Below, piece after piece: positions 5,522 through 21,756 of a stretch of DNA of 59,498 bases; position 1 is the first letter of the stretch; each line of letters starts with the position of its first letter. The translations under genes and the position numbers were made by a program. Source of the stretch: a virus (taxonomy: Duplodnaviria; Caudoviricetes); IMG/VR virus record IMGVR_UViG_3300027734_000078, positions 1 to 59,498 of that record, one strand, 5' to 3'. The notes beneath the pieces were generated by a model, which was not told the origin of the DNA, searched no databases, and saw only the letters and a program-made list of their open reading frames with translations.

Positions 5522-6042
5522 ATTTTATTTCCTTTTTTTAGGTTTTCTGCTGCTGTTACTATTTGTAGATTAGATGGTGTATGCAGTCCTGATACTATTT
5601 CGCCTTGTAGTGGGTAGATATGATCCACATGCCATTTAATTCCTGTATCAATTGTTCTTTGTATAGCTTCAGTATATATTTGTCTTATTTTATTTATGTC
5701 TTCTTTAGTAATCCATTTAGGAGTACGTTGCAATTTACTTGCTCTATACTTAACTCTTTTAGCAGCTCTTTTTCCAGCATTCTCAGGTTTATTCCAATAT
5801 TTTCTAGTTGCTCGTCTTATAGATTCTTTTATTTCCTCTACAGTTCTAGTTGATTTTGGTCTGCCTCGTTTGCCATGCTTTTGAGTTTTCTTACGGGCTT
5901 CGTTTTTTCTTTGCCTGCGACATTCAACACAATCTTGGCTACCTACATACCTAGTATTACCATGACCATATTTACAGGGTAACCCCTCATATCGTGGTTT
6001 GCCTTCTGCTTTAGCTCTAAGTCTAGGGGTATCGTATTTCAT
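5518..6042 (-). CDS. HNH endonuclease
   Basis: WHVDHIYPLQG...SGLHTPSNLQIVTAAENLKK and N-terminal CxxGH/CxxC. Start taken at MKYDTPR. Confidence 0.85.
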   Translation of the reverse strand: MKYDTPRLRAKAEGKPRYEGLPCKYGHGNTRYVGSQDCVECRRQRKNEARKKTQKHGKRGRPKSTRTVEEIKESIRRATRKYWNKPENAGKRAAKRVKYRASKLQRTPKWITKEDINKIRQIYTEAIQRTIDTGIKWHVDHIYPLQGEIVSGLHTPSNLQIVTAAENLKKGNKI

Positions 6043-6049
6043 ATTTTGT

Positions 6050-6078
6050 ATAGTATCATAATGTGGGGGGTAGGGCAA
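6050..6078 (-). promoter_or_regulatory. sigma70-like promoter of the HNH gene, probably leaderless
   Basis: TTGCCC-17 nt-TACTAT with extended TG, and ATG 7 nt downstream. Confidence 0.45.
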
Positions 6079-6255
6079 GGTTTTAAAAATTTGCAAAATA
6101 TTTTTTGCTTTTTGAGTTTTCAAAAGTAAGGGGGGTGTTTCCTTTTTTCAATTTTATAAAACTACCATATCATTTGTGTAGTTCCCAGTGAATACAGACG
6201 GGGACAAGGTTCATCAAATAATGGGGTCATAGGGGGGGACTAGGGGACAAAAAGC

Positions 6256-6284
6256 TGGACTTTGTCTAGTTTCTATGCTATAAT
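6256..6284 (+). promoter_or_regulatory. early sigma70 promoter P1
   Basis: TGGACT-17 nt-TATAAT with extended -10 (ATGCTATAAT), same spacer style as 7894 and 10969. Confidence 0.7.
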
Positions 6285-6327
6285 TCTTCACATGAACTGA
6301 AAAATTTATATGTCTTTTCTTTTCATT

Positions 6328-6359
6328 GGGACTTCTGCGTAATTTTACGCACTTGTCTT
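6328..6359 (+). repeat. 32-nt hairpin element, copy 1
   Basis: GGGACT TC TGCGTA ATTT TACGCA CT TGTCTT. Confidence 0.7.
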
Positions 6360-6396
6360 ATTTAATTAAACTTTAAAAACGAAAGCGAGAATTATT

Positions 6397-7080
6397 ATGT
6401 CAAAGAAACCTAGCCTTAAAAAAGCAGTAGCAGAAGTTAAGAAAGCAGTATTTTGTATGAGTGCAGATGATACGCTATCACTTGAACAGGGCGTTATTCA
6501 ACCCTTTGAACAGGTTGTAGCTAATCATAAGAACAGCGAGGAATTAAAGCATTTAATAGCCGAGAACCTAGCGTCAATTCTAGGAACTACACCGAGCTAT
6601 GAATTATGGAACGCTTGTCACGATAACACCGAGAAAGCCGTTATAACTTCAATGAAAATTGAAGAGGCTACATTCAAAAATATTTGGGCTAGTATCGTTA
6701 AGTTATTGGGTATCATGTATGACCTAGAAAAGCCTAAAGCGAAAAGTGTAGAGGCTATCAAAAAGGCAACGCAGAGAGAGAAAGCAAAATCAATGACGGG
6801 ACTTGATGGAAAAGATTATCTAGTTTCCGAAGTAGATGACGCTAACCTTGAAAAACTTTTTGGACTTCGTGGAAAAGCAGAACTTGTGAATAGAGAACTA
6901 GCTAACGAAAAAGAAAGCGAGAAATTGCAAAAACTAGCGAGAACAGCTAACGCAAATAATTTTCTAGCTAGAATGAAAACTCTAGTAAAAGAAAAATATG
7001 ACTTCGCTATGTATTTGGATACTAACCTAGCAACCTTTGAAATAGAATTTGAGGATAGTAAACATAATCCTGCGAAGTAA
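6397..7080 (+). CDS. hypothetical protein, first early gene (monocistronic)
   Basis: 227-aa ORF with its own promoter and terminator. Confidence 0.8.
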   Translation: MSKKPSLKKAVAEVKKAVFCMSADDTLSLEQGVIQPFEQVVANHKNSEELKHLIAENLASILGTTPSYELWNACHDNTEKAVITSMKIEEATFKNIWASIVKLLGIMYDLEKPKAKSVEAIKKATQREKAKSMTGLDGKDYLVSEVDDANLEKLFGLRGKAELVNRELANEKESEKLQKLARTANANNFLARMKTLVKEKYDFAMYLDTNLATFEIEFEDSKHNPAK

Positions 7081-7104
7081 ACGAAGTTAAAAAAGTAATA
7101 TTAA

Positions 7105-7138
7105 GGGATAACGATTAACTTCGTTATCCCTTTTTTTT
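7105..7138 (+). terminator. intrinsic terminator
   Basis: GGGATAACGA-TTAACT-TCGTTATCCC followed by T8. Confidence 0.9.
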
Positions 7139-7199
7139 CGTCAAAATTTTGGGGACACAATCCCCACGATGACCGTGACAATAAAGAGTAGGTGAGGGG

Positions 7200-7860
7200 G
7201 ACTTATATAACGAAGTTAACTTTGTGGCTACATCTTTTGGCAAGTTGTATTATAACACGCATAAGTTGTATTATAACAAGGTCTGTTTTATTACTTAATA
7301 ATCAAGGACTTACAGACTTGACTTTGTTGGGGTAGTGTTTTATTACTGTAAAATCAATGACTTACGCAAGTGATTAAAAAAAGGCAAGTGCTTGTATTAT
7401 ATATATATTTTATATTATAACATTATAACACGACTTTTGAAAAAGGCTTCAGCCAGAAAAAAGTTTTACTAATTTAACTTCGTGGCATAGCCGATTTTAT
7501 AAATTTCCCTGCCCTTTCTCCCAGCCCACGCAATGCTGTTTAGCGTGTTATAATGTATTATTACTTATAAATCAATGACTTAGCCTGTTATAGATGATTG
7601 GACTTTGTCAATACTTCTGTTTAAGTGTTTTATAATCAAAGACTTATCGTGTTATAAATGAATGGACTTTGTCAATAACAAAGTTAACAAAGCTAATGAA
7701 ATCAAGCACTTGGTATTATAACACGCACCTTGATTTTTCAGAGACAAACCCCTACAAACTATAGGGACAAAATTTGGTGGTGACCGTTCGTTCGTCTAGT
7801 CGGTGAGCCTTAAATTTTTAACCTTCCCTTGAAACCAATCCACGAAGTTAACCAAGTTAA
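7200..7860. repeat. non-coding region of interleaved repeats (IHF-consensus, TTATAACA, CGAAGTTAA)
   Basis: AATCAAnnnnTTR at 7300, 7352, 7570, 7634, 7700. ATTATAACAC-like repeats in both orientations. No ORF. Confidence 0.8.
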
Positions 7861-7893
7861 TTAAATCCCCCCCTATATATAAAGACATCTACC

Positions 7894-7922
7894 TTGACAA
7901 TGTCAACTAGCTATGCTATAAT
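7894..7922 (+). promoter_or_regulatory. consensus sigma70 early promoter P2
   Basis: TTGACA-17 nt-TATAAT with extended -10. The -35 lies within the palindrome TTGACAATGTCAA. Confidence 0.9.
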
Positions 7923-7973
7923 AATATTCATGCGTGGGGTATTCCGCATATAAGAAATGACTTATTTAACTTC

Positions 7974-8005
7974 GTGACATCTGCGTAATTTTACGCAATT
8001 GTCAC
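7974..8005 (+). repeat. 32-nt hairpin element, copy 2
   Basis: GTGACA TC TGCGTA ATTT TACGCA AT TGTCAC. Confidence 0.85.
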
Positions 8006-8026
8006 TTTTTGGAAAGAGAGAGCATT

Positions 8027-8149
8027 ATGACTAGTATTTATGATTGGTGGGTTATTAACAGAAGTTTTGATGGTGGTTATACTTTGACTAACTTAGCCCT
8101 GTATCAATTAATGGCTTATGATTTATGTTTAAAAGGAGAGCAATCATGA
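8027..8149 (+). CDS. small hypothetical protein (40 aa)
   Basis: MTSIYDWWVINRSFDGG...KGEQS. Purine-rich RBS, and the stop overlaps the next ATG. Confidence 0.6.
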   Translation: MTSIYDWWVINRSFDGGYTLTNLALYQLMAYDLCLKGEQS

Positions 8150-8325
8150 ACGGATATATTGCGTTGTATTTAGGTGAGAAGTATGAGATACAAGCTGACG
8201 ATGTTTGGTCAGCTAAACAGAAAGCTTTGAAAGATTTACAAGTATCTAAAAAGAAAGCATGGCAAGTATCTATTCATTTAGCCGAAGTGAATGGTGCTGA
8301 TTATAAACATACGGCTGACTTTTAA
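8146..8325 (+). CDS. hypothetical protein
   Basis: AGGAG RBS, start MNGYIALY. Confidence 0.7.
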   Translation: MNGYIALYLGEKYEIQADDVWSAKQKALKDLQVSKKKAWQVSIHLAEVNGADYKHTADF

Positions 8326-8335
8326 GGAGAACGAA

Positions 8336-8434
8336 ATGATTAGTATTTATGATTGGTATATAATGGGAGTCTGCGTATTTTTAGTAGTCGCTTATGTGGT
8401 ATTAATTTATTTAGATAGGGGAGATAAAAAATGA
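8336..8434 (+). CDS. small membrane protein (32 aa)
   Basis: MISIYDWYIMGVCVFLVVAYVVLIYLDRGDKK with TAAGGAG RBS and ATGA coupling to the next gene. Confidence 0.6.
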   Translation: MISIYDWYIMGVCVFLVVAYVVLIYLDRGDKK

Positions 8435-8577
8435 GTGATATTACTTATATCTTTTTGCAAATGTTATTGTTGTTGGCTTATGGTTGCTATGTTGCCTATC
8501 GTGTAGGTTATAAAAAAGGGCAAGATAGTGTATGGAAAAAAGTGAATGTATTTAAAACATGGAAGGAAGTCAAATGA
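8431..8577 (+). CDS. small membrane protein (48 aa)
   Basis: MSDITYIFLQMLLLLAYGCYVAYRVGYKKG..., GGAG RBS, ATGA coupling. Confidence 0.6.
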   Translation: MSDITYIFLQMLLLLAYGCYVAYRVGYKKGQDSVWKKVNVFKTWKEVK

Positions 8578-8753
8578 AAACGAAACCGATATTTAAAACA
8601 CAAGCATCACCAAGCTATAAAGGTTATGACAGGGAAATTTACATGTCAGAATATACACCTATAAACAAAGAGCATTACAGACGATTGAGAACTTGTGCAG
8701 TTGTGTCTGTAGGTATCAATATCTTTTTACTACTTGTCATGGTTATAAGATGA
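8574..8753 (+). CDS. hypothetical protein with C-terminal TM helix
   Basis: ORF track, ATGA-coupled start MKTKPIF. Confidence 0.65.
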   Translation: MKTKPIFKTQASPSYKGYDREIYMSEYTPINKEHYRRLRTCAVVSVGINIFLLLVMVIR

Positions 8754-9082
8754 ACATAGACCAAGTAAAAGAATATGTGACCACGCAGTTAAAGTCGTAT
8801 AGGGTTAAAGATATCCTAGATAACTTTAGTGACAAAGAGTGGTTGAGTATGTATAAACAGATAGCACCGACCAAGCCACACGAAGTGCAACGCAGACTTA
8901 TTGACTATGCAGTTATGGAGTTAGATAAGTTTAGGTATGTCTTATATAAAGAAAGGCACTATGAAGATTTACTCATAGACAAAGCCTGTCTTGAGTGTTT
9001 GAAGTGTGAAGATGTATCCTGTGCCGAGAGGAAGTATTATGTCAGACGACCCGATAGAAAAGGAGAAAACAATGAGCAATAA
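8750..9082 (+). CDS. hypothetical protein, Cys-rich C-terminus
   Basis: ATGA-coupled start MNIDQVKEY, contains CLECLKCEDVSC. Confidence 0.65.
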   Translation: MNIDQVKEYVTTQLKSYRVKDILDNFSDKEWLSMYKQIAPTKPHEVQRRLIDYAVMELDKFRYVLYKERHYEDLLIDKACLECLKCEDVSCAERKYYVRRPDRKGENNEQ

Positions 9083-9317
9083 AATCACAATAGTATTAAG
9101 TATCAACTCTGATACTGTGTCTCGGTTTTTGTTTGATGACTACATAAACGCTTGTGCTGACGCAAATTTGATGATAAGGTATGAGCCGTATACATCAGAT
9201 ATGTATGCAGAACTCAATGACAAAGCACTAGAAATTGAGAAAAAACAAGCACTTACAGAACTTGAAAATGAAATCTTAAACAATGTAGCCTGTGTCAATG
9301 GCTCTTGCGAAGACTAA
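9072..9317 (+). CDS. hypothetical protein
   Basis: AGGAG RBS before MSNKITI, ends CVNGSCED. Confidence 0.65.
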   Translation: MSNKITIVLSINSDTVSRFLFDDYINACADANLMIRYEPYTSDMYAELNDKALEIEKKQALTELENEILNNVACVNGSCED

Positions 9318-9428
9318 TATAAAGGAGAACTCTATGAAACAATCCATCTATACCTTTTTAATAAAGGCACACTAGTCTACTTCTAGACTAAATTTAAACT
9401 CGTATAAACAAATATAAAGGAGGTCAGT

Positions 9429-9815
9429 ATGATTGACCAAGCTTTGCTTTGTCTCGCCACGACCATATACATGGAGTCTGCTCATGAGCCACATCAGGCA
9501 CAAGTAGCAGTAGGCTATGTGTTAATGAGGCGAGCCGACTTTGAAAAAAAGAATGTGTGCCTTGAAATGAAACGACCATATCAGTTTAGTTGGTATGGGT
9601 TAGTGCAACCACCTTCGGTAATAAGACAGGAATATTTTGATATTGCTTACAAGGTATTACATCGCCTTGAAGTTGATTATAGTTATGGTGCAACAAACTT
9701 CCATGACACTACCATAAAGAAACCAAAGTCATGGACAAGATTAGAACCTGTAGTTAAATGGTCTAATCTTATTTTTTATAAACAAAAAGGAGAGAGATAT
9801 GCAAGTGCAAATTGA
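9429..9815 (+). CDS. SleB/Hydrolase_2 family cell wall hydrolase
   Basis: CLATTIYMES, AVGYVLMRR, YQFSW, GATNFH and LIFY motifs. AGGAGG RBS. Confidence 0.85.
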   Translation: MIDQALLCLATTIYMESAHEPHQAQVAVGYVLMRRADFEKKNVCLEMKRPYQFSWYGLVQPPSVIRQEYFDIAYKVLHRLEVDYSYGATNFHDTTIKKPKSWTRLEPVVKWSNLIFYKQKGERYASAN

Positions 9816-10074
9816 ACTAAACGCAGACCAAATAGAACAGATATTGTGTGAAGGTTTGAAACAAGCTTACGAAGTTAACTTAACTTTTCCCGATGAACCC
9901 GACTATGAAAAGCTACACCAAGCGTTTCAAGTATTACTTCCATACTTTATAGGGGAAGAAAACTATTTGCAGTTTGTAGTTAAAGCTAAAAAGAGTGCTG
10001 ATAAAGTATTAGAGCATGACAAGAAGTTAAAGAAGTATGGTAAAGCTTTAGCTGACGCATACGGGGGGCTATGA
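9799..10074 (+). CDS. hypothetical protein
   Basis: 91-aa ORF with AGGAG RBS. Confidence 0.7.
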   Translation: MQVQIELNADQIEQILCEGLKQAYEVNLTFPDEPDYEKLHQAFQVLLPYFIGEENYLQFVVKAKKSADKVLEHDKKLKKYGKALADAYGGL

Positions 10075-10178
10075 TGTCTAAACTAGATGTTGTATGCCTA
10101 GCCATAATTATAATTACAATACTATGGTTTATTGGGGGAGTTATTGAATGTCTATACCATTTACTTATGCTGTTGTAG
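10074..10178 (+). CDS. small hydrophobic protein (34 aa)
   Basis: MSKLDVVCLAIIIITILWFIGGVIECLYHLLMLL, coupled to the upstream stop. Confidence 0.5.
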   Translation: MSKLDVVCLAIIIITILWFIGGVIECLYHLLMLL

Positions 10179-10327
10179 ATGATGACGGAGAAATCTTACG
10201 CAAGTATAGATGGAGTGCTAAAGAGGCGAAGTGGCATAAAGAACAAGGGAGTAATGTCATTAAGCTAGAAGTCATTAAAGAAGTAGAGGTAGATGTTATG
10301 TCTTTAGTAGGAGAGTGTTTATTCTAA
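10148..10327 (+). CDS. hypothetical protein (59 aa)
   Basis: MSIPFTYAVVDDDGEILRKYRW...GECLF with GGAG RBS. Below the ORF-track cutoff. Confidence 0.65.
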   Translation: MSIPFTYAVVDDDGEILRKYRWSAKEAKWHKEQGSNVIKLEVIKEVEVDVMSLVGECLF

Positions 10328-10539
10328 TGTATACCAAGCTAGATGATTGGCGTCATGCCAACAAAGTTAACGAAGTTTTATTAAAAGAACCTACTGCTAC
10401 CAAAAAACATATTAGTAGTGTGTTAGGACTTTGCGATGCACGATTAAACTATTTGCATAGTCAAGGACTTATTAACATACAACATACTTATAGGAGAACT
10501 TATGAACAAAGAACAAAGACGAGCCATACGCAAGTTTGA
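10327..10539 (+). CDS. small putative HTH protein
   Basis: TAATG coupling. PTATKKHISSVLGLCDARLNYL resembles a winged HTH. Confidence 0.5.
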   Translation: MYTKLDDWRHANKVNEVLLKEPTATKKHISSVLGLCDARLNYLHSQGLINIQHTYRRTYEQRTKTSHTQV

Positions 10540-10768
10540 AACATGGCAGTTGAGAAAGTTTGCGTCAAACGCAAAAAAGGGTTATCACTTTTTCCAACCC
10601 GATAGCGTGCCGAAACCTACACCCCGTTCTGCTTACGAAGCTTGGCGTGGGGTATATACAAATGGGGACAGTGACCGTAGACAAGAGAAGTATATGACAT
10701 GGACAATCTATGCGTTTGCGTTTGCGTATGTTGCGTTTTTAATTTGGAGAGAATATGTATTTATGTAA
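10502..10768 (+). CDS. hypothetical protein with C-terminal TM helix
   Basis: AGGAG RBS, hydrophobic C-terminus. Confidence 0.65.
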   Translation: MNKEQRRAIRKFETWQLRKFASNAKKGYHFFQPDSVPKPTPRSAYEAWRGVYTNGDSDRRQEKYMTWTIYAFAFAYVAFLIWREYVFM

Positions 10769-10949
10769 ATGTGGGAACGAGATAGCTGATGAACGCATAG
10801 CCATAGGTTATCATGTGTGTCTTAAGTGTGGAGAGAAGAACGCACTTAATTATAAACATACGATTGTGCCTATGCCGAAGTCAAACTATATTGTTGTAAC
10901 TGATTTAGAACTACTAAAAGGGCTTAATTCTTCACACAAAAGTAAGTAA
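10755..10949 (+). CDS. DksA/TraR-like C4 zinc-finger protein
   Basis: CKCGNEIADERIAIGYHVCLKC. Confidence 0.65.
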   Translation: MYLCKCGNEIADERIAIGYHVCLKCGEKNALNYKHTIVPMPKSNYIVVTDLELLKGLNSSHKSK

Positions 10950-10968
10950 TTTTTTTGAGACTTTTGAC

Positions 10969-10997
10969 TTGACATTGTCAAGTAGGTATGCTATAAT
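10969..10997 (+). promoter_or_regulatory. consensus sigma70 early promoter P3
   Basis: TTGACA-17 nt-TATAAT with extended -10. The -35 lies within the palindrome TTGACATTGTCAA. Confidence 0.9.
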
Positions 10998-11038
10998 AAT
11001 ATTTGTAAGAGTAGTAAAAGTAGTATGTATTTTAACCT

Positions 11039-11070
11039 GTGACAATTGCGTAAATTTACGCACATGTCAC
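11039..11070 (+). repeat. 32-nt hairpin element, copy 3
   Basis: GTGACA AT TGCGTA AATT TACGCA CA TGTCAC. Confidence 0.85.
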
Positions 11071-11090
11071 TTTTTTTATGGAGAGCAATC

Positions 11091-11261
11091 ATGAAACAGG
11101 ATATAAAAAGCGAGCAGTATCAAGCCAAGTTATTAGGTGAACTATTCAAATCATATGGGTTAAATCATGTAACCCCTATCCCTTCCGAAACAAATTACAA
11201 ACTAGCAGTATATCTAATGAAAACCAAAGGAGAGAAAAATGCAAAACATCTTTCCAAATAA
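11091..11261 (+). CDS. hypothetical protein
   Basis: GGAG RBS before MKQDIKSE. Confidence 0.6.
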   Translation: MKQDIKSEQYQAKLLGELFKSYGLNHVTPIPSETNYKLAVYLMKTKGEKNAKHLSK

Positions 11262-11670
11262 ACAAGAAAAAGAAACACTACTGACGCAGTTAAATCTGCT
11301 AGGTGCAAAGCATGTGTATGTAGAGTTTAGAGGTGGAGGTGATGAAGGGCAAATAGAAGGTGTCTTTTATAGAGATAGGAATGATGATGTTCACGACATA
11401 CCTAGTGACATGATTGCTTGGACACAAATTGCCTATGGTGATAAGCCCCTTGAAACAAAACAGATGTCGTTATATGAAGCCCTTGAAGACTTATGTAGTC
11501 GTGCATTAGATGGCACAGGGTTGGATTGGTATAACAACGAAGGTGGTCAAGGTGAGTTTACGATTGACTTTACTGAAAGCCCTCCAAAGATAAGCTTGAA
11601 TGTCGGTATCAATCATATGTCAACAGATGATTATACCTACGACATGGACGATGAGGAGGACGAAATATAA
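11239..11670 (+). CDS. acidic protein, DUF6878-like
   Basis: V.F.GGGDEGQIE and DWYNNEGGQG motifs, family recalled from memory. Confidence 0.55.
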   Translation: MQNIFPNKQEKETLLTQLNLLGAKHVYVEFRGGGDEGQIEGVFYRDRNDDVHDIPSDMIAWTQIAYGDKPLETKQMSLYEALEDLCSRALDGTGLDWYNNEGGQGEFTIDFTESPPKISLNVGINHMSTDDYTYDMDDEEDEI

Positions 11671-12011
11671 TGAATACTCATTACCATTCTAAAACATCTG
11701 TAAAGAAGTGGGGAGGTGTTGAGGCAGACTATCAACCTATCCATGATTGGTTTGATGCAACCAAAGAATGTTTTGCTGATGCAAGACACAGGGCAATTCG
11801 TCATCACTCACAGGGTATCTTTGAATGTGAAAGACAATTCGGGTTATTCATTGTGAATAGTGATGGTCGTGAAGTGCCTACAAGACTTATCGGGGAACAA
11901 CATGTTAAAGAAGATTGTGGTGGGTGGATACCTAGCATGCAAGATTGGCTTATTAACATGAAGTTTGTTAGTTGGATGAACAGAGGTTATGACATGAAAG
12001 AAGGAGAATAG
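11670..12011 (+). CDS. His-rich protein, DUF6915-like
   Basis: H..SVKKWGG, IHDWFD.TK, RHRAIRHH and EQHVKEDCG motifs. Confidence 0.6.
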   Translation: MNTHYHSKTSVKKWGGVEADYQPIHDWFDATKECFADARHRAIRHHSQGIFECERQFGLFIVNSDGREVPTRLIGEQHVKEDCGGWIPSMQDWLINMKFVSWMNRGYDMKEGE

Positions 12012-12012
12012 C

Positions 12013-12882
12013 ATGGGCTTTCATATAAACACTAGCAATATGCCTGTTATCAAAACCTTTGAACAGGCAAAGAAAGAGTATCAAAGTAGAACTGCTGTGC
12101 GTGGTCAGCCACATTCCATGCGTAGATTGGGTGGTAGGTATGAGAAAGAGAAATGGCTTAAGCAAGAAATGTTAGAAGGTGTTGAAGTCTATATCGCAGG
12201 CTACTATGACACAGAGTTAGTTAGATATTACCCTACGCATATGGAGTTTAGTTTAGGTGGGTATCCATCGTTAAGCACAAAGTTATTTATACAAGGGCTA
12301 ACATATACTATTTCGTTTTGGAAATATTATGCCGATGACTATGTGCCTAAACCCTTTAGCCACGAAGCTAACAAAGATATAGAGTCACGAGTAACACTAT
12401 ACGGAATCAGAGATGAAGCCGATAGACATATTGATAAAGATAGTTGGTATAAGGTGTATTACGATAAAAGGTTTGATGATAATAATAATTACCTTACACC
12501 TAAAAAGTTTAAGGTAGATAGAAAACGTATGAAAGAAATAACTCGTGAGTATCAACCCTTTCTTAAGTATGCAGATAGTATGAGTAAGTTGAATAATGAT
12601 TATATAACTGATGAAGCTACTCAAAAGTATATCAATACACAAACGATGAATAATAAAAACTCACTTGCTAATATTATTTTAAATAGTGCGTTAGATGAAA
12701 GTCAATGGTGGTATGCGTATTATGCGTTGGCTCGTCAGACATATAGTTCTGTATTTAATCCTAGCAATCGTGAATGGGAAGGTAAGATAACCATTCGTGG
12801 TATGAAAAATTATTTATACAACGAGTTAAAGAAAAATAGTCCACAAGTTTTAGTAGAAGTAAAACCCGAGACAAATGCGTAA
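12013..12882 (+). CDS. hypothetical protein
   Basis: 289-aa ORF with AGGAG RBS. Confidence 0.75.
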   Translation: MGFHINTSNMPVIKTFEQAKKEYQSRTAVRGQPHSMRRLGGRYEKEKWLKQEMLEGVEVYIAGYYDTELVRYYPTHMEFSLGGYPSLSTKLFIQGLTYTISFWKYYADDYVPKPFSHEANKDIESRVTLYGIRDEADRHIDKDSWYKVYYDKRFDDNNNYLTPKKFKVDRKRMKEITREYQPFLKYADSMSKLNNDYITDEATQKYINTQTMNNKNSLANIILNSALDESQWWYAYYALARQTYSSVFNPSNREWEGKITIRGMKNYLYNELKKNSPQVLVEVKPETNA

Positions 12883-12899
12883 TTCCACGCAAATGTCTT
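12868..12899 (+). repeat. 32-nt hairpin element, copy 4
   Basis: GAGACA AA TGCGTA ATTC CACGCA AA TGTCTT. Confidence 0.75.
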
Positions 12900-12920: not shown

Positions 12921-13967
12921 ATGCAACAAGAAATCAGTTTGAAACAAGCAGAAGAGTTGATTGCAACAGTCGGTCGTGATGTTACAGTTCATCTCAAAGG
13001 TCAGCCAGGCATTGGCAAGTCATCTATATTGAAATCATTAGCTAAACGATTTCCCGACCACACACCTGTGTATATAGATTGTGCTGACTTAGATTTGGGC
13101 GACCTAGCTATGCCTGCCATGAACCATGAGAGCAAGACTACTACATTCTATCCGAATGAACGCTTTGCTATTCATGACAACAAGCCTGTCATCATCATGC
13201 TAGATGAGATAACAAAGGCAAGCGAACCTGTTAAGAATATGTTATTGCCTGTCATGCTAGAGAGAAGGTTAGGTGCAGTTAAGTTTCACCCCGACTCTAT
13301 TGTATATTCAACAGGTAATCTTACAACAGATGGTGTAGGTGACACGATGAAGGCTCATGCCAAGAACAGATTGACGGCAGTCATTGTGCGTAACCCTAAT
13401 GATGATGAGTGGATTAATTGGGCTATTGATAACAACATAGCACCCGAAGTTGTAGCGTGGGTTAAACAATTTCCTCATGCCCTAGCATCATATACAGATG
13501 ACTCACAGAAAGAGAACATGTATATCTACAATCCTAGAAAACAGCAAGAGGCATTTGTATCGCCTCGTTCGTTAGAGAAAGCATCATTCATTGTTAAGAA
13601 CAGAGCAACACTAGGTGAAGATACTACCTTGACTGCACTTGCAGGCACATTGGGCGAGTCAGCGGCTAGGGATATGTCTGCTTACTTTAGTTTAGCTGAT
13701 GGACTACCGACCAAAGAAAGTATCTATCAAGAACCCGACAAGGCTCAGTTGCCTAACGACCCTGCGGCTCGAGTAATTCTAGTGATGAGAGAACTTATGA
13801 CAATCACAGACAAACATATGGATGCGTGGGTAACTTATCTTCAACGCTTACCAATGGAGATACAAGCATTGTTTGCAGTCAACATGATGGCATCATCACG
13901 CAAACAGATTGCGGCTACCAACAAGTCGTTCATTGATTGGGCAGTTAAGAATAACCAATACTTCTAG
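12921..13967 (+). CDS. MoxR-like AAA+ ATPase
   Basis: Walker A GQPGIGKS, Walker B IIMLDEITKA, sensor TGN and SPRS. Confidence 0.88.
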   Translation: MQQEISLKQAEELIATVGRDVTVHLKGQPGIGKSSILKSLAKRFPDHTPVYIDCADLDLGDLAMPAMNHESKTTTFYPNERFAIHDNKPVIIMLDEITKASEPVKNMLLPVMLERRLGAVKFHPDSIVYSTGNLTTDGVGDTMKAHAKNRLTAVIVRNPNDDEWINWAIDNNIAPEVVAWVKQFPHALASYTDDSQKENMYIYNPRKQQEAFVSPRSLEKASFIVKNRATLGEDTTLTALAGTLGESAARDMSAYFSLADGLPTKESIYQEPDKAQLPNDPAARVILVMRELMTITDKHMDAWVTYLQRLPMEIQALFAVNMMASSRKQIAATNKSFIDWAVKNNQYF

Positions 13968-13975
13968 GAGGATAT

Positions 13976-14098
13976 ATGACGGACGAATTTTTAGATTGGC
14001 TTAATCAATGCCCTAACCAATGGTTAAGGCTTGAAGATACAGAAGGCACTGTTACATATATGTTTTATAAGGAGAATAGTGATGGCACTAACGAGTGA
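13976..14098 (+). CDS. small hypothetical protein (40 aa)
   Basis: MTDEFLDWLNQCPNQW... with AGGAGG RBS. Confidence 0.6.
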   Translation: MTDEFLDWLNQCPNQWLRLEDTEGTVTYMFYKENSDGTNE

Positions 14099-15233
14099 GC
14101 AAAGAGTCACGAAGTCCCACATAGCTATAATGCGTAGCAAACAGTTCTGTATGTTTGCAGGTGTGTTATCGGTGGGCAAGGTAAACTTTACGGAAGACTT
14201 ACCGACTGCGGCAACCAATGGTCGTGATGTCATGTATAACCCAAAGTTTATTGATACATTGAATGACAAAGAACTAAACTATGTTGTGTTGCATGAAGCG
14301 TTGCACAAGGTGTATCAACATATGCACCTATGGAAAAAGCTATGGAAAGAAAATCCCATGCTTGCAAACATGGCGGCTGACTATGTTGTGAACTATGCAA
14401 TACATGAAGCTGATGCTGATAGTGAGATTGCCAAACGACCCGACTCAGCGTTGTTTGATATGGCTTACAAGGGCATGACTACTAAACAAATCTTTGACAT
14501 GCTTAAGAAAGATAGTAACTTTGTTAAGCAACAAGCAGGTCATGATACACATGATTGGGAAGGTGCTGAAGCTTTATCTGATGATGAAGTTAAAGAGACT
14601 GCCAAGCAGATAGACCAAGCATTACGACAAGGTGAAATTATTCGTGGCAAGATGCAAGGCAATAAGAACAGAGCAGTCAACGAAATACTTGAACCTAAAG
14701 TAAATTGGCGTGAGCAATTGCGTGAGTTCGTCAATTCTACTTGTAAGAACAAAGATAGAACATCATGGAAACGACCACACAAGCGTTTCATTGGGCATGA
14801 CATATATATGCCTAGCATGATAGGTGAGTCTATAGGTCAAGTTGTAGTCGGTATAGATACATCGGGTTCTATTGGTCAGAAAGAACTCAATGAGTTTTTA
14901 TCAGAAGTTGTAGCTATATGTGATGATGTATCCCCATCAAGTATAGAGTTATTGTATTGGGATACTGCAGTTGCAGGGCATGAGACATACAATCAAGGTG
15001 ACTACAAAGCCTTGGTTCAATCTACCAAACCTGCAGGTGGGGGTGGCACTCATGTTGGTTGCGTCAATCAGTATGTTAAAGATAAACGCATACAACCCGA
15101 GGCTATCATTATATTAACAGATGGATATGTAGAAGATGATTGGGGTGGCAATTGGGAATACCCTACACTATGGGCAGTCACAGCACGCCACAACACATCA
15201 CCACATGGTAAGACCATTCATATTGATGAGTAA
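14082..15233 (+). CDS. metallopeptidase-VWA protein (DUF2201-like)
   Basis: TAATNG, LHEALH (HExxH), MIDAS IDTSGSI, GGGGT and ILTDG. Confidence 0.88.
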   Translation: MALTSEQRVTKSHIAIMRSKQFCMFAGVLSVGKVNFTEDLPTAATNGRDVMYNPKFIDTLNDKELNYVVLHEALHKVYQHMHLWKKLWKENPMLANMAADYVVNYAIHEADADSEIAKRPDSALFDMAYKGMTTKQIFDMLKKDSNFVKQQAGHDTHDWEGAEALSDDEVKETAKQIDQALRQGEIIRGKMQGNKNRAVNEILEPKVNWREQLREFVNSTCKNKDRTSWKRPHKRFIGHDIYMPSMIGESIGQVVVGIDTSGSIGQKELNEFLSEVVAICDDVSPSSIELLYWDTAVAGHETYNQGDYKALVQSTKPAGGGGTHVGCVNQYVKDKRIQPEAIIILTDGYVEDDWGGNWEYPTLWAVTARHNTSPHGKTIHIDE

Positions 15234-15241: not shown

Positions 15242-15273
15242 GAGACATTGTATCAAAAATGATACTTTGTCTC
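15242..15273 (+). repeat. 32-nt hairpin element, copy 5 (inner stem replaced, pairing kept)
   Basis: GAGACA TT GTATCA AAAA TGATAC TT TGTCTC. Confidence 0.75.
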
Positions 15274-15293
15274 TTTTTTCAAGGAGAGAAAAA

Positions 15294-15821: not shown

Positions 15822-15831
15822 GGAGAAAATT

Positions 15832-16434: not shown

Positions 16435-16681
16435 ACCTAAAAGCGTAACTATATTATCTTGTAAGTTTAGCACTGTTATATCAGTGCGTGACCACAATAA
16501 TGAAGAGTATCGCATGGATTATTGGGCTTTGCATAATGTATTGATGGAGTTAGTAGATACCGATTGGTTTAAAGATAAGAAAGTGAAATGGAAATACAAG
16601 CGTTTGAATTATGAGGAGACATACAAGCACTTATTGTATCACCCTGCAATACATAAACTTATTAACATAGAGGAGAACTAA
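16427..16681 (+). CDS. hypothetical protein
   Basis: ORF track, exact start uncertain. Confidence 0.6.
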   Translation: MPKPKSVTILSCKFSTVISVRDHNNEEYRMDYWALHNVLMELVDTDWFKDKKVKWKYKRLNYEETYKHLLYHPAIHKLINIEEN

Positions 16682-16682
16682 A

Positions 16683-17528
16683 ATGAGTAACATTAGTATA
16701 GCAAGCAGTGCAGTTTTAATTGACTTAAACATATCAATATGGACAGCTAGGAAACTAGATAAGAATGTGTCTAAAGAAATTGATATAAACAAAAACACAA
16801 CCATCAAGGCGGGTAACTATAACAAACATATCCTTGCAGGTTCAGACCAACTAGATGCTATCACAAAGTTAGCTAATGAAATTCGTGATTGGCATGGTAG
16901 ACAAACACTACCTTGGTCAGATACAGGCACAAGGTTATTACCTATGACAAACTTCTTTGACTATAAACAACAGCTAGGGGTATATGAGGCTGAGTTTAAA
17001 TCTCGTATCAATACGTTTATACAACAATACCCAAACATCATTCAGAGTATGGTATATAAACTAGGTAATCTGTTTGATAGGTCAGAGTATCCCGATGCAG
17101 ACAAGATTGAGTCTAAGTTCAATTTGAGATATACTATTATGCCTGTGCCAGAAACAAAGGACTTCCGTGTTGACATCGCAGATGACATACGAGAAGAGAT
17201 GCAAAAGGAATATCAGAAAGCCTATGAAGGTCGTGTCGAAACTGCTATGAGTGATGCGTGGTCTAGGTTGCATAACACCTTAGAACATATGGTAGATAGA
17301 TTAAGTGGTGATGATAAAAAGATATTTAGGAATAGTTTAGTAGATAATGCATTAGAGTTGACAAATCTATTAACAAGGCTTAATGTAACAAAAGACCCTA
17401 AATTAGAGCAAGCAAGACAAGCGTTAGAACAATCTCTAGTAGGTGTAACAGCAGATGATTTAAGAGAAAGTCAAGGGGCTCGACAAGAAATCTTATCGAG
17501 AGTAAATGAAATTATGGAGAGCATATGA
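16683..17528 (+). CDS. DUF3150-like protein associated with AAA/VWA
   Basis: L.IS.WTARKLDK, TLPW...G.RLLP, LG.LF....YP and DFR motifs. Confidence 0.6.
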   Translation: MSNISIASSAVLIDLNISIWTARKLDKNVSKEIDINKNTTIKAGNYNKHILAGSDQLDAITKLANEIRDWHGRQTLPWSDTGTRLLPMTNFFDYKQQLGVYEAEFKSRINTFIQQYPNIIQSMVYKLGNLFDRSEYPDADKIESKFNLRYTIMPVPETKDFRVDIADDIREEMQKEYQKAYEGRVETAMSDAWSRLHNTLEHMVDRLSGDDKKIFRNSLVDNALELTNLLTRLNVTKDPKLEQARQALEQSLVGVTADDLRESQGARQEILSRVNEIMESI

Positions 17529-17833
17529 AAATATTTCATGCAATAGATGAACAATCATCAGTGGTATCTAAAGAGGATAAGGAAAAGATGGCTATACTTA
17601 AACTCGTAGACGTAGGTAAGTATGTAAAGAATGTAGGTATTAGAGATGGTCAATTTTATGTGATTGCAGAAAACAATACAGATGAAATCTATCTAGAGTA
17701 TAAAGCCGCTATGTCTAACATAGACTCTGCCTTTAAACAAAAAATTGATTTTAGAGTGATAGGTCAGAAGACAGCTGAGTTTCACGATAAGAAAGCAGCT
17801 GTTGTGCAAAGACTTATGGAAATCCCAAAATGA
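17525..17833 (+). CDS. hypothetical protein
   Basis: ATGA-coupled ORF. Confidence 0.7.
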   Translation: MKIFHAIDEQSSVVSKEDKEKMAILKLVDVGKYVKNVGIRDGQFYVIAENNTDEIYLEYKAAMSNIDSAFKQKIDFRVIGQKTAEFHDKKAAVVQRLMEIPK

Positions 17834-18126
17834 AACAACCCGTAAAAGAAAAATGGGTTAAGCAACAAGTAGTTAAGATGCTAAAGGCTCGGGGAGTATA
17901 TTATTTTTTCCCCGTTGCTGGTGCATACACAAGTATAGGTGTGCCTGACATTGTTGCGTGTATCAGAGGTAGATTTGTAGGTATTGAATGTAAGGCAGGA
18001 ACTAATCGACCTACAGAATTACAACTACGAAACCTTGAAGCTATACGCGACAATGAAGGGGTAGCTTTAGTTGTAAATGAAAATGATTTAGAAGCATTAG
18101 AACAAAGATTGGAAACATTAACATGA
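17830..18126 (+). CDS. VRR-NUC domain nuclease
   Basis: GVPDIVAC...FVGIECKAG...PTELQ. Confidence 0.88.
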   Translation: MKQPVKEKWVKQQVVKMLKARGVYYFFPVAGAYTSIGVPDIVACIRGRFVGIECKAGTNRPTELQLRNLEAIRDNEGVALVVNENDLEALEQRLETLT

Positions 18127-18542
18127 CAAGATTAAAAACAATTTTAAATAAATACAAGGAGACAAGAATGGCATACAGAACAGGGAAACCTAAAATTAGA
18201 TTGCAAGAAACTTATGCTGATTTTTCTGATGAACAAATGGCTGATATGATGAAAAGAATGAGTCAAGGTCAAGGTGCAGGTCAACCTGCTATCACTGCTG
18301 ACATGGTAAATCACCCACCACACTACACTCAAGGAGGAATGGAGACCATAGATATTATGGAGGCTAAGTCAACCCCCGAAGAGTTTAAAGGACATCTTAA
18401 ATTAACGGCATTAAAGTATTTAACTAGAGCAGGGCATAAAGAAAGTGAATTACAAGATGCTAAGAAGACACAATGGTATGTCAATAGATGGGTTAAAACT
18501 TTAGAAAAAGAAACAGTTAACATTAAAGTTATAGATGAATAA
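18123..18542 (+). CDS. DUF3310 (SaV-like) protein
   Basis: DMVNHPPHYT.GG.ETID...KYL.RAG.K...QD..K..WY. Confidence 0.85.
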   Translation: MTRLKTILNKYKETRMAYRTGKPKIRLQETYADFSDEQMADMMKRMSQGQGAGQPAITADMVNHPPHYTQGGMETIDIMEAKSTPEEFKGHLKLTALKYLTRAGHKESELQDAKKTQWYVNRWVKTLEKETVNIKVIDE

Positions 18543-18691
18543 TGTGGGTATTTAATCTTGCATTAATATCAGGAGTTATGGTAGGCTTAGAACTTAAATT
18601 TCTAGAGAAGAATGCTCCATATACTTTTTCTTTAGTAATAGACCTATTCATAATTCGATTGATATTACAAAAGCTTAAATATGTCAGATGA
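18542..18691 (+). CDS. small hydrophobic protein (49 aa)
   Basis: MWVFNLALISGVMVGLEL...VIDLFIIRL, TAATG coupling. Confidence 0.55.
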   Translation: MWVFNLALISGVMVGLELKFLEKNAPYTFSLVIDLFIIRLILQKLKYVR

Positions 18692-18884
18692 TGCAGATAA
18701 AACGCAAGATAGATTAGAAAAAGAAGATGCTATTCGCCGCAAGGAAATGGATAGCATGAAATATATAAAAGCAACGGGTCACTGTTTAAATTGTGGCACA
18801 AAGCTTAAAGACTTAAGACGTTGGTGTGATAAAGATTGTGCTGACGACTGGGAATACAACGTCAATAGACGCAACCAAACGTGA
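18681..18884 (+). CDS. zinc-finger protein
   Basis: MSDDAD... TGHCLNCG...RRWCDKDC. Confidence 0.7.
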   Translation: MSDDADKTQDRLEKEDAIRRKEMDSMKYIKATGHCLNCGTKLKDLRRWCDKDCADDWEYNVNRRNQT

Positions 18885-18912
18885 CATTTGCGTAAAAATA
18901 CGCAATAGTCAC
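18881..18912 (+). repeat. 32-nt hairpin element, copy 6
   Basis: GTGACA TT TGCGTA AAAA TACGCA AT AGTCAC. Confidence 0.8.
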
Positions 18913-18928
18913 CCACAAGGAGAGAGGT

Positions 18929-19123
18929 ATGGCTACAAAATCAACTAACCCTACTACTAGGGAAACATCTGCCACTACATTCGATAGAGGCGAAAGAAAT
19001 TTAATCGTTACCATTCATCATGGTGTTATCAAAATTAGACCTAAAGGATTAAAGTCAGAGGAAGTTATTAACATTGCTGCTATCTATGAGCATGCAGTTA
19101 AAGCCCGCGTTAGGGGTAAGTAA
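18929..19123 (+). CDS. hypothetical protein
   Basis: Strong RBS, coupled to the polymerase gene. Confidence 0.7.
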   Translation: MATKSTNPTTRETSATTFDRGERNLIVTIHHGVIKIRPKGLKSEEVINIAAIYEHAVKARVRGK

Positions 19124-20949
19124 TGCCTAACTTAATTACGCTTGACTTTGAAACATACTATGATAAAGAGTATGGCTTAAAGAAATACACTACCGAAGAA
19201 TACATCAGAGATGAAAAGTTTGAAGTCATAGGTGTAGCTGTTAAGGATAAGGGTGTAACTAAATGGTTTACAGGAACACATGCTGAGACCAAAGCTTTCC
19301 TAGACTCATACAACATGCATGAACACTTTGTGTTAGGACATAACATGAGGTTTGATGCGTCTATACTGTCGTGGATATTTGATATACACCCATTAGGTTT
19401 ATTTGATACCATGAGTATGGCTCAAATTTTACATGGGTTAACTGAGTCTGTATCTTTAGCGAATCTCTCTAAGTTATATGAGTTAGGTGAGAAGGGAACA
19501 GAAGTCCTTGACGCTTTAGGTAAACGCCGATTAGATTTCACACACAATGACTTAGCCAAATATGGTGGTTATTGTATCAATGACGTAGAACTAACCTACG
19601 AACTATTCACAGAATTAAAAGACAGGTTTACTTCCCCCGAAATGAAACTTATTGATTTAACTATCCGTATGTTTACAGAACCTAAACTAGAACTTAACAA
19701 GGGATTGTTGGTGAGACATCTTGCTGAGGTTAGAGCCAAGAAAGAAGAACTACTTAATTCAGTAACGGTAGATAAGGATACGCTTATGAGCAATCCTAAG
19801 TTTGCTGCCATTTTAGAAACCATGAAAATTAAAGTGCCCATGAAAGAAAGCCCTGCTACAGGTAAACAAACATATGCGTTAGCTAAAACAGATGAAGGGT
19901 TTAAAGCTTTACTAGAACATGAAGACCCTTATGTCCAAGCCTTAGCTGCGGCTCGTATAGGAAACAAATCTACCATTGAAGAAACAAGAACAGAAACCTT
20001 TATCAACATAGCTAACAGAGGAAAACTTCCTGTTCCGTTAAAGTATGCAGGTGCAGTTGTGTCTCATCGATGGAGTGGGGTTGATGGTATTAATCTTCAA
20101 AACTTACCACGGTCATCACCTCTTCGCCGAGCAATTTGTCCCCCAAAAGGTTTTAAAATTGTTGCGTCTGACTTGAGCAATATTGAATTGCGTCTTGCGT
20201 ATTGGTTCGCTCAATCACATGGAAAGATACAGCAGATTAAAGATGGTATTGATTTGTATACACAATCAGCAGCAGACATTACAGGAACACCCTATAACGA
20301 AGTTAACAAAGACCTACGATATATATTTAAAGTAGTAAATTTATCGGGTATCTATGGTGTAGGGGCTAATAAGATGCACTCTATATTAAAACAAGGCGGT
20401 GTAGACAAAGACTTAAACGAAGTTAAAAACATCGTGTATGCGTATCGCAAATCAAACCCCGAACTTGTTGAGGCGTGGCAAGACGCAGGAACTATGTTAG
20501 AAAGTGTAAGAGCAGGGCAACACTATACAATGGGTAATGGTGGGATTATATCGGCTGTCCCAAAAGAAGGCATGATGAAACCTAATGGCATGATGTTAGG
20601 ATTACCTAATCTTCGTAAATTAAAGACAGATATGGGCGAATCGTGGGCATATGATAAGTTAATGGGAAGAACTTTAATCCCCGAATATATTCACCCGTCT
20701 AAAACATTTCAACGCTGCATACAAGCGTTGGCTCGTGATATAATAGCAGAACAGTTAATACAAGTATCTAAAAGGTATACTGTTGTTATGACTGTGCATG
20801 ATGAGTTAGTAATGTTATGTAAAGATACAGAGGTAGACGATTGTGTAGCCTACGTTAAAAAATGTATGACTACTGCGCCCTCTTGGTGTAGCGACTTACC
20901 ACTCGGTTGTGAGGTAGGTGTAGGTGATAACTATATGGATGCTAAGTAA
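19123..20949 (+). CDS. polA: family A DNA polymerase with 3'-5' exonuclease
   Basis: ExoI LDFET, HNMRFD, NLQNLP, motif A SDLSNIELR, motif B R...KVVNLSGIYG, motif C VHDE. Confidence 0.95.
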   Translation: MPNLITLDFETYYDKEYGLKKYTTEEYIRDEKFEVIGVAVKDKGVTKWFTGTHAETKAFLDSYNMHEHFVLGHNMRFDASILSWIFDIHPLGLFDTMSMAQILHGLTESVSLANLSKLYELGEKGTEVLDALGKRRLDFTHNDLAKYGGYCINDVELTYELFTELKDRFTSPEMKLIDLTIRMFTEPKLELNKGLLVRHLAEVRAKKEELLNSVTVDKDTLMSNPKFAAILETMKIKVPMKESPATGKQTYALAKTDEGFKALLEHEDPYVQALAAARIGNKSTIEETRTETFINIANRGKLPVPLKYAGAVVSHRWSGVDGINLQNLPRSSPLRRAICPPKGFKIVASDLSNIELRLAYWFAQSHGKIQQIKDGIDLYTQSAADITGTPYNEVNKDLRYIFKVVNLSGIYGVGANKMHSILKQGGVDKDLNEVKNIVYAYRKSNPELVEAWQDAGTMLESVRAGQHYTMGNGGIISAVPKEGMMKPNGMMLGLPNLRKLKTDMGESWAYDKLMGRTLIPEYIHPSKTFQRCIQALARDIIAEQLIQVSKRYTVVMTVHDELVMLCKDTEVDDCVAYVKKCMTTAPSWCSDLPLGCEVGVGDNYMDAK

Positions 20950-21452
20950 TGAACTACTATGAAATAGGCACTAAGTCTACTATAGCTAAAGAACTATATG
21001 ACTATGCCTTCAATCCTCAGCCGTGGTTTCCACACTACAATTTTAATGTTAAACCTATACCACCAGATATAGTAGCACAAGATAAATTTTTTAGGTGGCT
21101 ACACGCAAGGTATGAGTTTATTGTAGGAATACTAAGATTAGACCCTTACACTTGTTATGATTGGCATACAGATACAAGACGAGGTGTAGGTATCAATATG
21201 TTATTGACTCCGTTCGATAGAAGTGTTTGTGCTTTTGCTCCTAACAAAGAGGGCGCAGTATTTGAAATAGAAGAATTAAAATATAAGCCTACAACATACT
21301 ATATATTTAATACGCAAGTGCCACATACAGTATATAACTTTGAAACAACTCGGTATCTTATGAGTGTGGAATTTGCTAAAGATAAAAGCCAATTAACCTT
21401 TGAAGACTTACTAAATGATATAAGGACACAGTATGAAAAAGACCGCACGTAA
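20949..21452 (+). CDS. putative cupin / 2OG-Fe(II) oxygenase-like protein
   Basis: WHTD (HxD) and distal FNTQVPHTV His, with double-stranded beta-helix spacing. Confidence 0.55.
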   Translation: MNYYEIGTKSTIAKELYDYAFNPQPWFPHYNFNVKPIPPDIVAQDKFFRWLHARYEFIVGILRLDPYTCYDWHTDTRRGVGINMLLTPFDRSVCAFAPNKEGAVFEIEELKYKPTTYYIFNTQVPHTVYNFETTRYLMSVEFAKDKSQLTFEDLLNDIRTQYEKDRT

Positions 21453-21756
21453 TGATATAACAGGCGATTGGTTACAATCTAAACCAAACAGCGAACAGTT
21501 TGAAAAGAATTGGGATTTGATATTTGGTAAAAAGAAACCTATAGCCGCATTTATACCTGAAGAAAAAGAAACAGTGTTTACAATAACTATACCGGAATTA
21601 CAAAACTATATATGGGATGAAGCAATGGGAGATCTGCGTCCAAGAAATACTGAAGAACAAGAGGCATTAAAAGAACAGATTTTAGCAGAGTATGAACTTA
21701 ATAAATCAACAGGCGAAGTCCAAAAGGTAGATAATGGCGACACAACAAATACATAA
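21433..21756 (+). CDS. hypothetical protein
   Basis: ARNDITGD...F..NWDLIF, a common small phage motif. Confidence 0.7.
   Translation: MKKTARNDITGDWLQSKPNSEQFEKNWDLIFGKKKPIAAFIPEEKETVFTITIPELQNYIWDEAMGDLRPRNTEEQEALKEQILAEYELNKSTGEVQKVDNGDTTNT

Follow-up and report, generated by a model that had tools for sequence, protein, structure and literature searches.

In this work, we address the question of why one long stretch of a phage genome should be free of the word GATC, and what such a gap may tell about the way in which this DNA is used during infection. The genome belongs to an uncultured freshwater phage (Duplodnaviria; Caudoviricetes), IMG/VR virus record IMGVR_UViG_3300027734_000078; the window that we analysed is the entire record of 59,498 bp, which is classed as linear and estimated to be 94% complete. 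Its genes are arranged in two arms. The early/replication arm has its genes on the + strand from about 6.2 to 29.73 kb, small early open reading frames (ORFs) first and replication genes after them. The late arm, on the - strand, covers 29731-59498 and 1-5176, continuing across the record ends, and encodes terminase, portal, virion proteins and a polyvalent protein. The G+C content is alike in both arms, which differ in strand and skew. We found that the avoided words in the early arm number at least eleven, and that their depletion reflects selection on the DNA words themselves.

Of the 86 GATC sites in the window, none falls between those at 5622 and 21631; this gap spans 16,009 bp, and the second longest 3,174 bp. 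The GATC-free block at 5626-21630, which the original prediction had found by eye, was thus confirmed by count. Its rough figures were also accurate: for at least 17 sites claimed in the first 5.6 kb, 18 were counted in 1-5625, and the approximately four noticed from 21631 to 29.7 kb are exactly four, at 21631, 24805, 26297 and 27922. Base composition, estimated beforehand to predict roughly 50 sites in the block, gives 52.3, and a Markov model gives 37.9. As a codon-preserving test, synonymous codons were shuffled 1000 times inside each gene and the observed number was compared with the shuffle mean. The shuffles yielded 26.9±4.0 GATC sites in the block and never fewer than 15, so neither codon use, which had been named as a possible cause of the depletion, nor protein sequence accounts for the loss.

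The depletion is wider than GATC and wider than the scarcity of GGCC, CCGG and GCGC that had been noted without counting. In comparison with the codon shuffles, the block is nearly without GGCC (0 observed, 13.5 expected), GTAC (1 vs 31.5), CCGG (1 vs 6.7), GCGC (2 vs 12.6) and CGCG (2 vs 12.0), and poor in ACGT (10 vs 30.5) and TCGA (10 vs 30.1). Together with GATC these are the eight palindromes summed below. Four control palindromes stand at their shuffle expectation (CATG 83 vs 72.5, CTAG 61 vs 52.0, AGCT 57 vs 62.8, TGCA 68 vs 61.7). The non-palindromic pair CCAG/CTGG is low as well (6 vs 20.5 and 6 vs 28.6), GAWTC falls below the shuffles, and CTNAG does so in the first third of the arm. 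GGWCC, CCWGG, GGATG and GCWGC, which are scarce by base composition, were rejected as individually non-significant against the codon shuffles, and 6-bp palindromes as a class showed no depletion beyond those that hold avoided 4-mers. Markov z-scores agree with the shuffles: among 4-mers ranked by the Markov model, palindromes make up six of the seven most under-represented words of the block. The twelve most under-represented words of the late arm include a single palindrome, CATG, whose scarcity the codon shuffles explain. The late arm is mildly depleted in GTAC (95 vs 132.7 by codon shuffle), TCGA (13 vs 32.1) and CCGG (17 vs 30.1).

The strand and skew of the early arm, unlike those of the rest, could suggest that base composition, codon use or a foreign origin of the arm produced the pattern with no selection on sites. 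We give this explanation hardly any credence, and consider it refuted: codon-preserving shuffles never came near the observed counts, palindromes are strand-neutral, control palindromes of like composition are normal, and the two arms are similar in G+C. The comparison with relatives, in which sites prove to be lost synonymously and the pattern recurs, leads to the same answer.

With the DUF2201 protein of the early arm as query, 49 IMG/VR loci were obtained, and five whole records, G001-G005 (three of them estimated complete), were compared with the window. They are syntenic with it, with identities mostly of 70-95% in the core replication proteins and a hypervariable stretch in the first 3 kb of the early arm; the arm-limited, polar depletion is present in every one of the five. 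A broader comparison used the homologous 9-13 kb region of the window and of 25 IMG/VR loci of at least 12 kb, a word being called depleted when observed at no more than 0.25 of expectation; two of these 26 regions (L017 and L018) have identical counts and are not independent. GTAC was depleted in 25 of the 26 regions, GGCC in 24, GATC in 17, GCGC in 14, ACGT in three and TCGA in one, CCGG in all nine testable regions and CGCG in eight of 24. None of the controls CATG, CTAG, AGCT and TGCA was depleted in any of the 26.

The avoided set varies among close relatives. GCGC and CGCG are kept in G003 and G005, ACGT in G002 and G005, and G005 retains most of its GATC (42 vs about 78). When 30 aligned GATC sites of the G005 early genes were followed in the window genome, two were found kept, 19 lost synonymously and nine lost with an amino-acid change; aligned control words were kept in much larger numbers (CATG 46, TGCA 38, AGCT 29). 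The GCGC sites of G003 gave a similar picture, with one kept, 10 synonymous losses and 11 non-synonymous ones. These comparisons are direct evidence that the depletion is selection on DNA words themselves, varying with lineage as differing host restriction repertoires would give. Because of the word specificity, the lineage variation and the synonymous losses, we attribute it to selection by host restriction enzymes and not to composition. The claim that sites had been selected against, and only in the early region, is therefore upheld by the shuffles, the counts along the arm, the aligned codons and the 26-genome set. A phage methylase was considered as the reason why G003 and G005 keep GCGC or GATC, and was rejected, PF00145 and PF01555 (the two families searched) being absent from G001-G005. 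At the head of its early arm, which is otherwise site-poor, G005 also has a short G+C-rich segment (about 500-1300 bp from the start of the arm) dense in GGCC, GCGC, CGCG and GATC; this segment may be a recent acquisition.

The extent of the depleted zone is best described by its edges. On the left, the eight palindromes occur at about 12-15 per kb in the flanking late DNA (about 15 per kb up to 5725) and then stop: after the last sites at 5723/5725 all eight are absent from 5726-12524, a strictest zone of 6.8 kb that ends with the next site at 12525. The right limits are nested. ACGT and TCGA are back from about 12.5-17 kb, GCGC, CCGG, GATC and CCAG/CTGG at about 20.9-21.6 kb, and GTAC only at 30192, so that a GTAC-free stretch of 24.5 kb (5724-30191, between GTAC at 5723 and 30192) coincides with the + strand arm. 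In the relaxed distal part of the arm, 21631-29730, with the exonuclease, helicase, endonuclease VII and primase genes, GATC and GTAC are still low by codon shuffle (4 vs 17.9 and 0 vs 22.7), and ACGT, CCGG and GCGC are normal again. For the eight words summed, observed and expected numbers in successive thirds of the arm are 2/102.6, 23/101.8 and 48/98.3, and in the late arm 436/516.9. At the arm boundary near 29.73 kb, where the gene of the polyvalent protein has its 3' end, the words resume within 40 bp (ACGT at 29766, TCGA at 29771, GATC at 29773 and 29794). The depleted zone thus spans about 5.7-29.7 kb, sharp at both edges and graded inside; the original prediction, which had equated the early region with the 16-kb block, was right about the GATC-free span and too narrow about the region.

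Inside the arm the sites return at a particular place. GATC reappears at or near the family A DNA polymerase gene (19123-20949, + strand) in all four GATC-avoiding genomes (G000-G003), its density recovering just after, and CCAG/CTGG likewise reappear at or near this gene in five of five genomes (G000-G003 and G005). This, together with the razor-sharp arm boundary, suggests steps rather than a purely smooth gradient.

In the reading that we favour, and that seems to us rather probable, the early arm is the first DNA to enter the cell, host RNA polymerase transcribes it from strong promoters near the end that leads, and the late arm follows after restriction has been neutralised. The + arm (about 5.7-29.7 kb) would have been purged by selection of words cut by the type II enzymes of the host population, and the - arm would not. 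A fixed DNA end would lie between the SprT-like gene and the first early promoter, at roughly 5.7-6.25 kb, and would enter the cell first; host RNA polymerase would start at a cluster of near-consensus promoters, and the arm would be drawn in slowly or stepwise. Early products, perhaps with an injected ADP-ribosyltransferase polyvalent protein, would neutralise restriction before the late arm is exposed. The earlier a site enters, the stronger the selection against it would be. In this way the abrupt left edge, the gradient inside the arm with its conserved step behind the DNA polymerase gene, and the sudden return of sites at the boundary would all be explained. As a cut anywhere should kill, the late arm would have to be absent or protected during active restriction. 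What we infer in this explanation is the terminus, how fast and in which order the DNA enters, and the protector, both that there is one and which product it is.

The leading end offers several observations that bear on it. The true first ORF of the + strand, at 5177-5521, encodes a conserved SprT-like HExxH protein of 114 aa and lies just outside the site-free zone. It holds five of the words (GTAC 5405, GGCC 5453, ACGT 5478, TCGA 5502, GATC 5504), which are conserved in relatives and stand 0.5-0.85 kb upstream of the first early promoter. Such sites would be difficult to reconcile with active restriction if the DNA there were already in the cell. Beside the SprT-like gene lies an endonuclease VII/HNH-like gene on the - strand (5518-6123), inserted in the window genome and not found at that place in relatives; a population variant in one public sequencing run, X4, joins 5514 to 6081 across it, and the gene behaves like a mobile homing-endonuclease insertion. 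Next to it, at 6124-6190 (+ strand), comes a conserved non-coding element with a G-run, then TGTTTCC and an A/T tract, also present in G002 and G003. It stands between the SprT-like gene and the first promoter and may be regarded as a candidate terminus or packaging signal.

Three promoters of sigma-70 type were predicted on the + strand, all with TG and an extended -10: the first of the early arm at 6256-6284 (10/12 matches), and two of full consensus (12/12) at 7894-7922 and 10969-10997. In five of five oriented genomes the first 7 kb of the arm holds a cluster of near-consensus sigma-70 promoters on the + strand. The genes behind this cluster of strong host-type promoters all point inward, an arrangement of T7 type if the leading end is placed correctly. 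T7-type single-subunit RNA polymerase (PF00940) is absent from the window, although the identical search finds those of T7 and N4, and early transcription must therefore use the host RNA polymerase. A genome end at 5.7-6.25 kb that enters first fits the sharp left edge, the tolerated sites upstream and the promoter cluster. The physical left end near 6.1-6.2 kb proposed by the original prediction would agree with the start of the zone at 5726, the conserved element at 6124-6190 and the first strong promoter at 6256; its stepwise or slow entry and its early protector are, like ours, conjectural.

The same features could be read in another way, which we judge quite unlikely: the genome would enter whole, only the DNA transcribed before counter-measures act would need to be intact, and cuts in the late arm would be tolerated, or repaired through phage recombination and end-protection functions. 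The depleted zone does match the transcription arm exactly, the arm does encode exonuclease and endonuclease VII-type proteins, and a promoter-proximal gradient would be produced as well. However, a double-strand break anywhere normally kills an infecting genome, and a cut at any of the five conserved sites 0.5-0.85 kb upstream of the first promoter would open the early genes to exonucleases; nor was a ligase or end-protection family seen in the scans made of the window proteins.

The ordered-entry reading supposes a protector of the late arm. DNA methylase families PF02086, PF01555 and PF00145 are absent from the window, in agreement with the original remark that no DNA methylase is evident, and self-methylation is thus not indicated. 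Two other kinds of candidate can be named. The last gene of the late arm, at 29726-35959 on the - strand, encodes a protein of 2077 aa in which an ART-PolyVal ADP-ribosyltransferase domain scored 94.4 bits against a cut-off of 31.2, and LPD38 scored 93.5 bits against one of 27. Its great length, these domains of the polyvalent set and its place with the virion genes put it among polyvalent proteins. Proteins of this kind are described as predicted to be injected along with the DNA (PMC5512222), and by its family the 2077-aa protein may likewise be predicted to be injected, in which case it could act before any gene expression. It gave no match at E≤1 with PDB sequences and no RNA polymerase signal. 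The second candidate, by charge alone, is the very acidic early DUF6878 protein (143 aa, pI 4.1, net charge -21) encoded at 11239-11670 on the + strand.

A dedicated inhibitor may also be dispensable. In this alternative, which we regard as unlikely, entry is ordered, the replication proteins are present by the time the late arm arrives, and this arm is copied at once and outruns restriction by its copy number and by the shut-off of the host; late sites would then be under weak selection, not free of it. All replication genes do lie inside the depleted arm, our searches, for Ocr and ArdA, found no anti-restriction family, and the mild late-arm depletion in GTAC, TCGA and CCGG resembles weak residual selection. 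For a pure race, however, the return of full site density within 40 bp from the arm boundary is abrupt, and T5-like phages, as described in PMC10644984, show that general protection of later DNA exists.

The late arm decides against a further possibility, namely that an early phage nuclease destroying host DNA cuts these very words and the phage omits them from the DNA then present, an idea that parallels the A1 hypothesis put forward for T5 (10.1101/866236). Several HNH/endonuclease VII-like genes are held by the arm, and GTAC, avoided in 25 of 26 regions, is also missing from all 65 kb of a distant cultured relative, Pag-Yong1. Yet such a nuclease would destroy the late arm with its 112 GTAC and 82 GATC sites, and at least eleven words are avoided in sets that differ between close relatives sharing the nuclease genes. 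Self-immunity of this kind appears to us very improbable.

Several phages show that DNA used first may avoid sites. T5 and BF23 are described as subject to restriction only through sites in the first-step-transfer DNA, and in T5-like phages later DNA is reported to carry sites and nevertheless to be protected by an unidentified early function (PMC10644984; 10.1101/866236). For the T7-like Murciavirus CB5A/CPG1g, restriction is likewise described as acting only through motifs in the first-injected region (PMC12455610). Of the two precedents invoked by the original prediction, T5 held, through this literature and the position of its EcoRI sites, six of six of which lie outside the terminal repeats by our computation. 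T7 did not: its GATC scarcity is genome-wide, and we computed no regional pattern of 4-bp palindromes in it.

In T5, as in the window, one segment lacks restriction sites and the rest of the genome has them, and that segment holds small fast-evolving genes behind strong host promoters. The T5 segment, however, is 10.2 kb of 121.8 kb (about 8%), against 16-24 kb of about 60-66 kb here, with the replication genes included; it is mildly poor in 4-bp palindromes (GATC 26 vs 35.3, GGCC 12 vs 26.1), whereas here several words are wholly absent; and the terminal repeat and the injection stop signal are T5 features with no known counterpart in this genome. Slow, transcription-linked entry from a fixed end with host promoters is described for T7-like phages (PMC12455610), and a similar entry may apply here. 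In T7 the A1-A3 promoters lie within 750 bp of the end and are followed by gene 0.3, and the promoters of the window start at 6256, 7894 and 10969; unlike T7, the window has neither a phage RNA polymerase nor Ocr, and its late genes are on the opposite strand. The Murciavirus case, as published, differs in concerning one type I motif and not a dozen type II words (PMC12455610).

N4 (Schitoviridae) resembles the window in its rightward early and middle genes and its leftward late genes, the last of which encodes a giant virion protein; it also has counterparts homologous to the AAA ATPase and to the DUF2201 protein. It differs in that its giant protein is a virion RNA polymerase, for which the 2077-aa protein has no signal, and in that GATC, GCGC and CGCG are avoided across the entire N4 genome and not by arm. 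The Planktothrix phage Pag-Yong1 (OL906435.1) has in common with the window the terminase, the portal, the AAA/DUF2201/DUF3150 set and a large polyvalent protein, at 23-47% identity; its G+C is 69% and it has 0 GTAC in 65,014 bp. HTVC023P and DSL-LC04 were rejected as comparable cultured phages, having a different gene layout and no regional depletion. The principle that first-used DNA avoids sites is thus known from T5, BF23 and Murciavirus, and the clade of the window is an unusually extreme case, standing out from the phages compared in how many words are avoided, how completely they are missing and how much of the genome is concerned.

A stronger form of the ordered-entry reading, which we put forward tentatively and consider possible, though doubtful, is that the whole 24-kb early arm (40% of the genome) is one long first-transfer segment that host RNA polymerase pulls in from the promoters of the leading end, with a conserved checkpoint just after the DNA polymerase gene, the late arm being admitted only after general protection against many type II enzymes is established. 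The site-free lengths are nested, about 7 kb for ACGT/TCGA, about 15.5 kb for GATC, GGCC, CCGG, GCGC and CCAG, and 24 kb for GTAC; if this form were true, evolution would have recorded in them the time of entry and the moment at which each enzyme is disarmed.

A number of observations weigh against ordered entry with protection. Polarity alone would also suit models without ordered entry. No convincing terminator-like site was found at the 21.6-kb step or at the arm boundary. The site-free zone includes about 400 bp (5726-6123) of the inserted endonuclease gene, which blurs the possible position of the end. Among 24 public sequencing runs found as Logan contigs, four (X1, X3, X4 and X5) were compared with the window and gave no molecule ends; contigs cross 5488-6803, 5485-7273 and 5488-7728 unbroken, and such contigs neither show nor exclude an end. 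The record and G001-G005 are classed as having no end repeats and break at varied places, collapsed repeats being hidden by contigs. The anti-restriction families Ocr (PF08684) and ArdA are absent from the window, and when all window proteins were compared with T5 by tblastn (E≤0.001), no homologues were found, including pre-early A1, A2 and dmp. The DUF6878 protein was rejected as a DNA mimic: its AlphaFold model (pLDDT 78.5) had no Foldseek match in PDB at E≤0.001, and its best matches are kinesins with a TM of about 0.15. As the record is estimated to be 94% complete, some gene could also be missing.

Higher summed depth at 5208-5608 and 3604-4004 was considered as a sign of a terminal repeat and rejected, being cross-mapping of conserved genes. 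In the main texts of the literature on cultured relatives and HTVC023P-type phages, nothing on termini was found.

Around the early promoters two further features were observed. A 16-nt palindrome, TGCGTAA-spacer-TTACGCA with small variations, occurs at 6336-6351, 7982-7997, 11047-11062, 12876-12891 and 18889-18904 (0.11 matches expected); each of the three near-consensus promoters is followed, 50-60 bp further downstream, by one of the first three copies. The palindrome may serve as an operator or form a 5' RNA hairpin, and none of the relatives examined contains the exact word. The stretch 7135-8000 is non-coding, begins after a strong terminator-like hairpin (7103-7132) and contains families of direct and inverted repeats (a 32-nt unit four times, a 22-nt unit three times, and others); in contigs from public runs, rearranged joints occur within it. 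Its role could be that of an origin or of a regulatory array.

The + arm begins with small ORFs of no family and continues with DUF6878, DUF6915, the AAA ATPase, the DUF2201 metallopeptidase/VWA protein, DUF3150, a nucleotide kinase, the family A DNA polymerase, exonuclease, helicase, endonuclease VII and a primase/DUF927 protein. The first early ORF (6397-7080, + strand, 227 aa) lies in the hypervariable leading 3 kb, has no Pfam or PHROGs family and matches only unnamed viral clusters in the ESM Atlas. None of nine small early ORFs has a PHROGs family, and the SprT-like protein has only weak matches of unknown function there. The DUF6915 protein (11670-12011) is 95-97% identical in G001, G003 and G004, exceeding the DNA polymerase (80-89%). 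The AAA ATPase (12921-13967) and the DUF2201 protein (14031-15233), at 12921-15233 on the + strand, form a pair that is present in phage N4 too, at 22-25% identity.

The late arm starts, on the - strand, with a possible small terminase of no family (4491-5153), the large terminase (2948-4489), where restriction-word density is normal, and the portal (479-2938). Judged by the terminase, DSL-LC04 and the pelagiphages HTVC027P/HTVC023P come closest among cultured phages, at about 50% identity; megablast found no close DNA relatives among deposited phages, and no tRNA genes that could hint at the host were found in the window. A late-arm protein of 474 aa (51546-52970, - strand), the only one of the window with a methyltransferase fold, combines this SAM-methyltransferase fold with an MptE-like domain. 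It matches general SAM-methyltransferase models, so a DNA methylase is improbable, and G001-G005 yielded no homologue of it. The late arm carries word biases of its own, with GCWGC, CAGCAG and CTGAAG three- to seven-fold over base-composition expectation and GASTC low (17 vs 46.9), as is TCGA in the shuffle comparison given above. In all regions AATT falls 25-30% short of the codon shuffles (in the late arm, for example, 199 vs 265), a genome-wide feature unrelated to the arm pattern.

For an abundant group of uncultured phages from fresh water, these results show by sequence alone that restriction enzymes act at a sub-genomic scale. A test of site avoidance over the whole genome would overlook or weaken such a signal, because it is masked by the late arm. 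For this group the pattern gives testable predictions about the end that enters first, the extent of entry before protection, and the restriction specificities met by each lineage; as the word sets differ among close relatives, they could link uncultured phages to hosts via restriction repertoires. Even for T5 it is not understood by what means the DNA that enters later escapes so many unrelated enzymes. The conserved genes described here form a second set, unrelated to that of T5, and reduce the candidates for the protector to DUF6878, DUF6915, the AAA ATPase with the DUF2201 protein, DUF3150 and the polyvalent protein, and if the 24-kb arm is a first-transfer segment, this freshwater clade would be a second independent system in which a protector of the T5 kind could be found.

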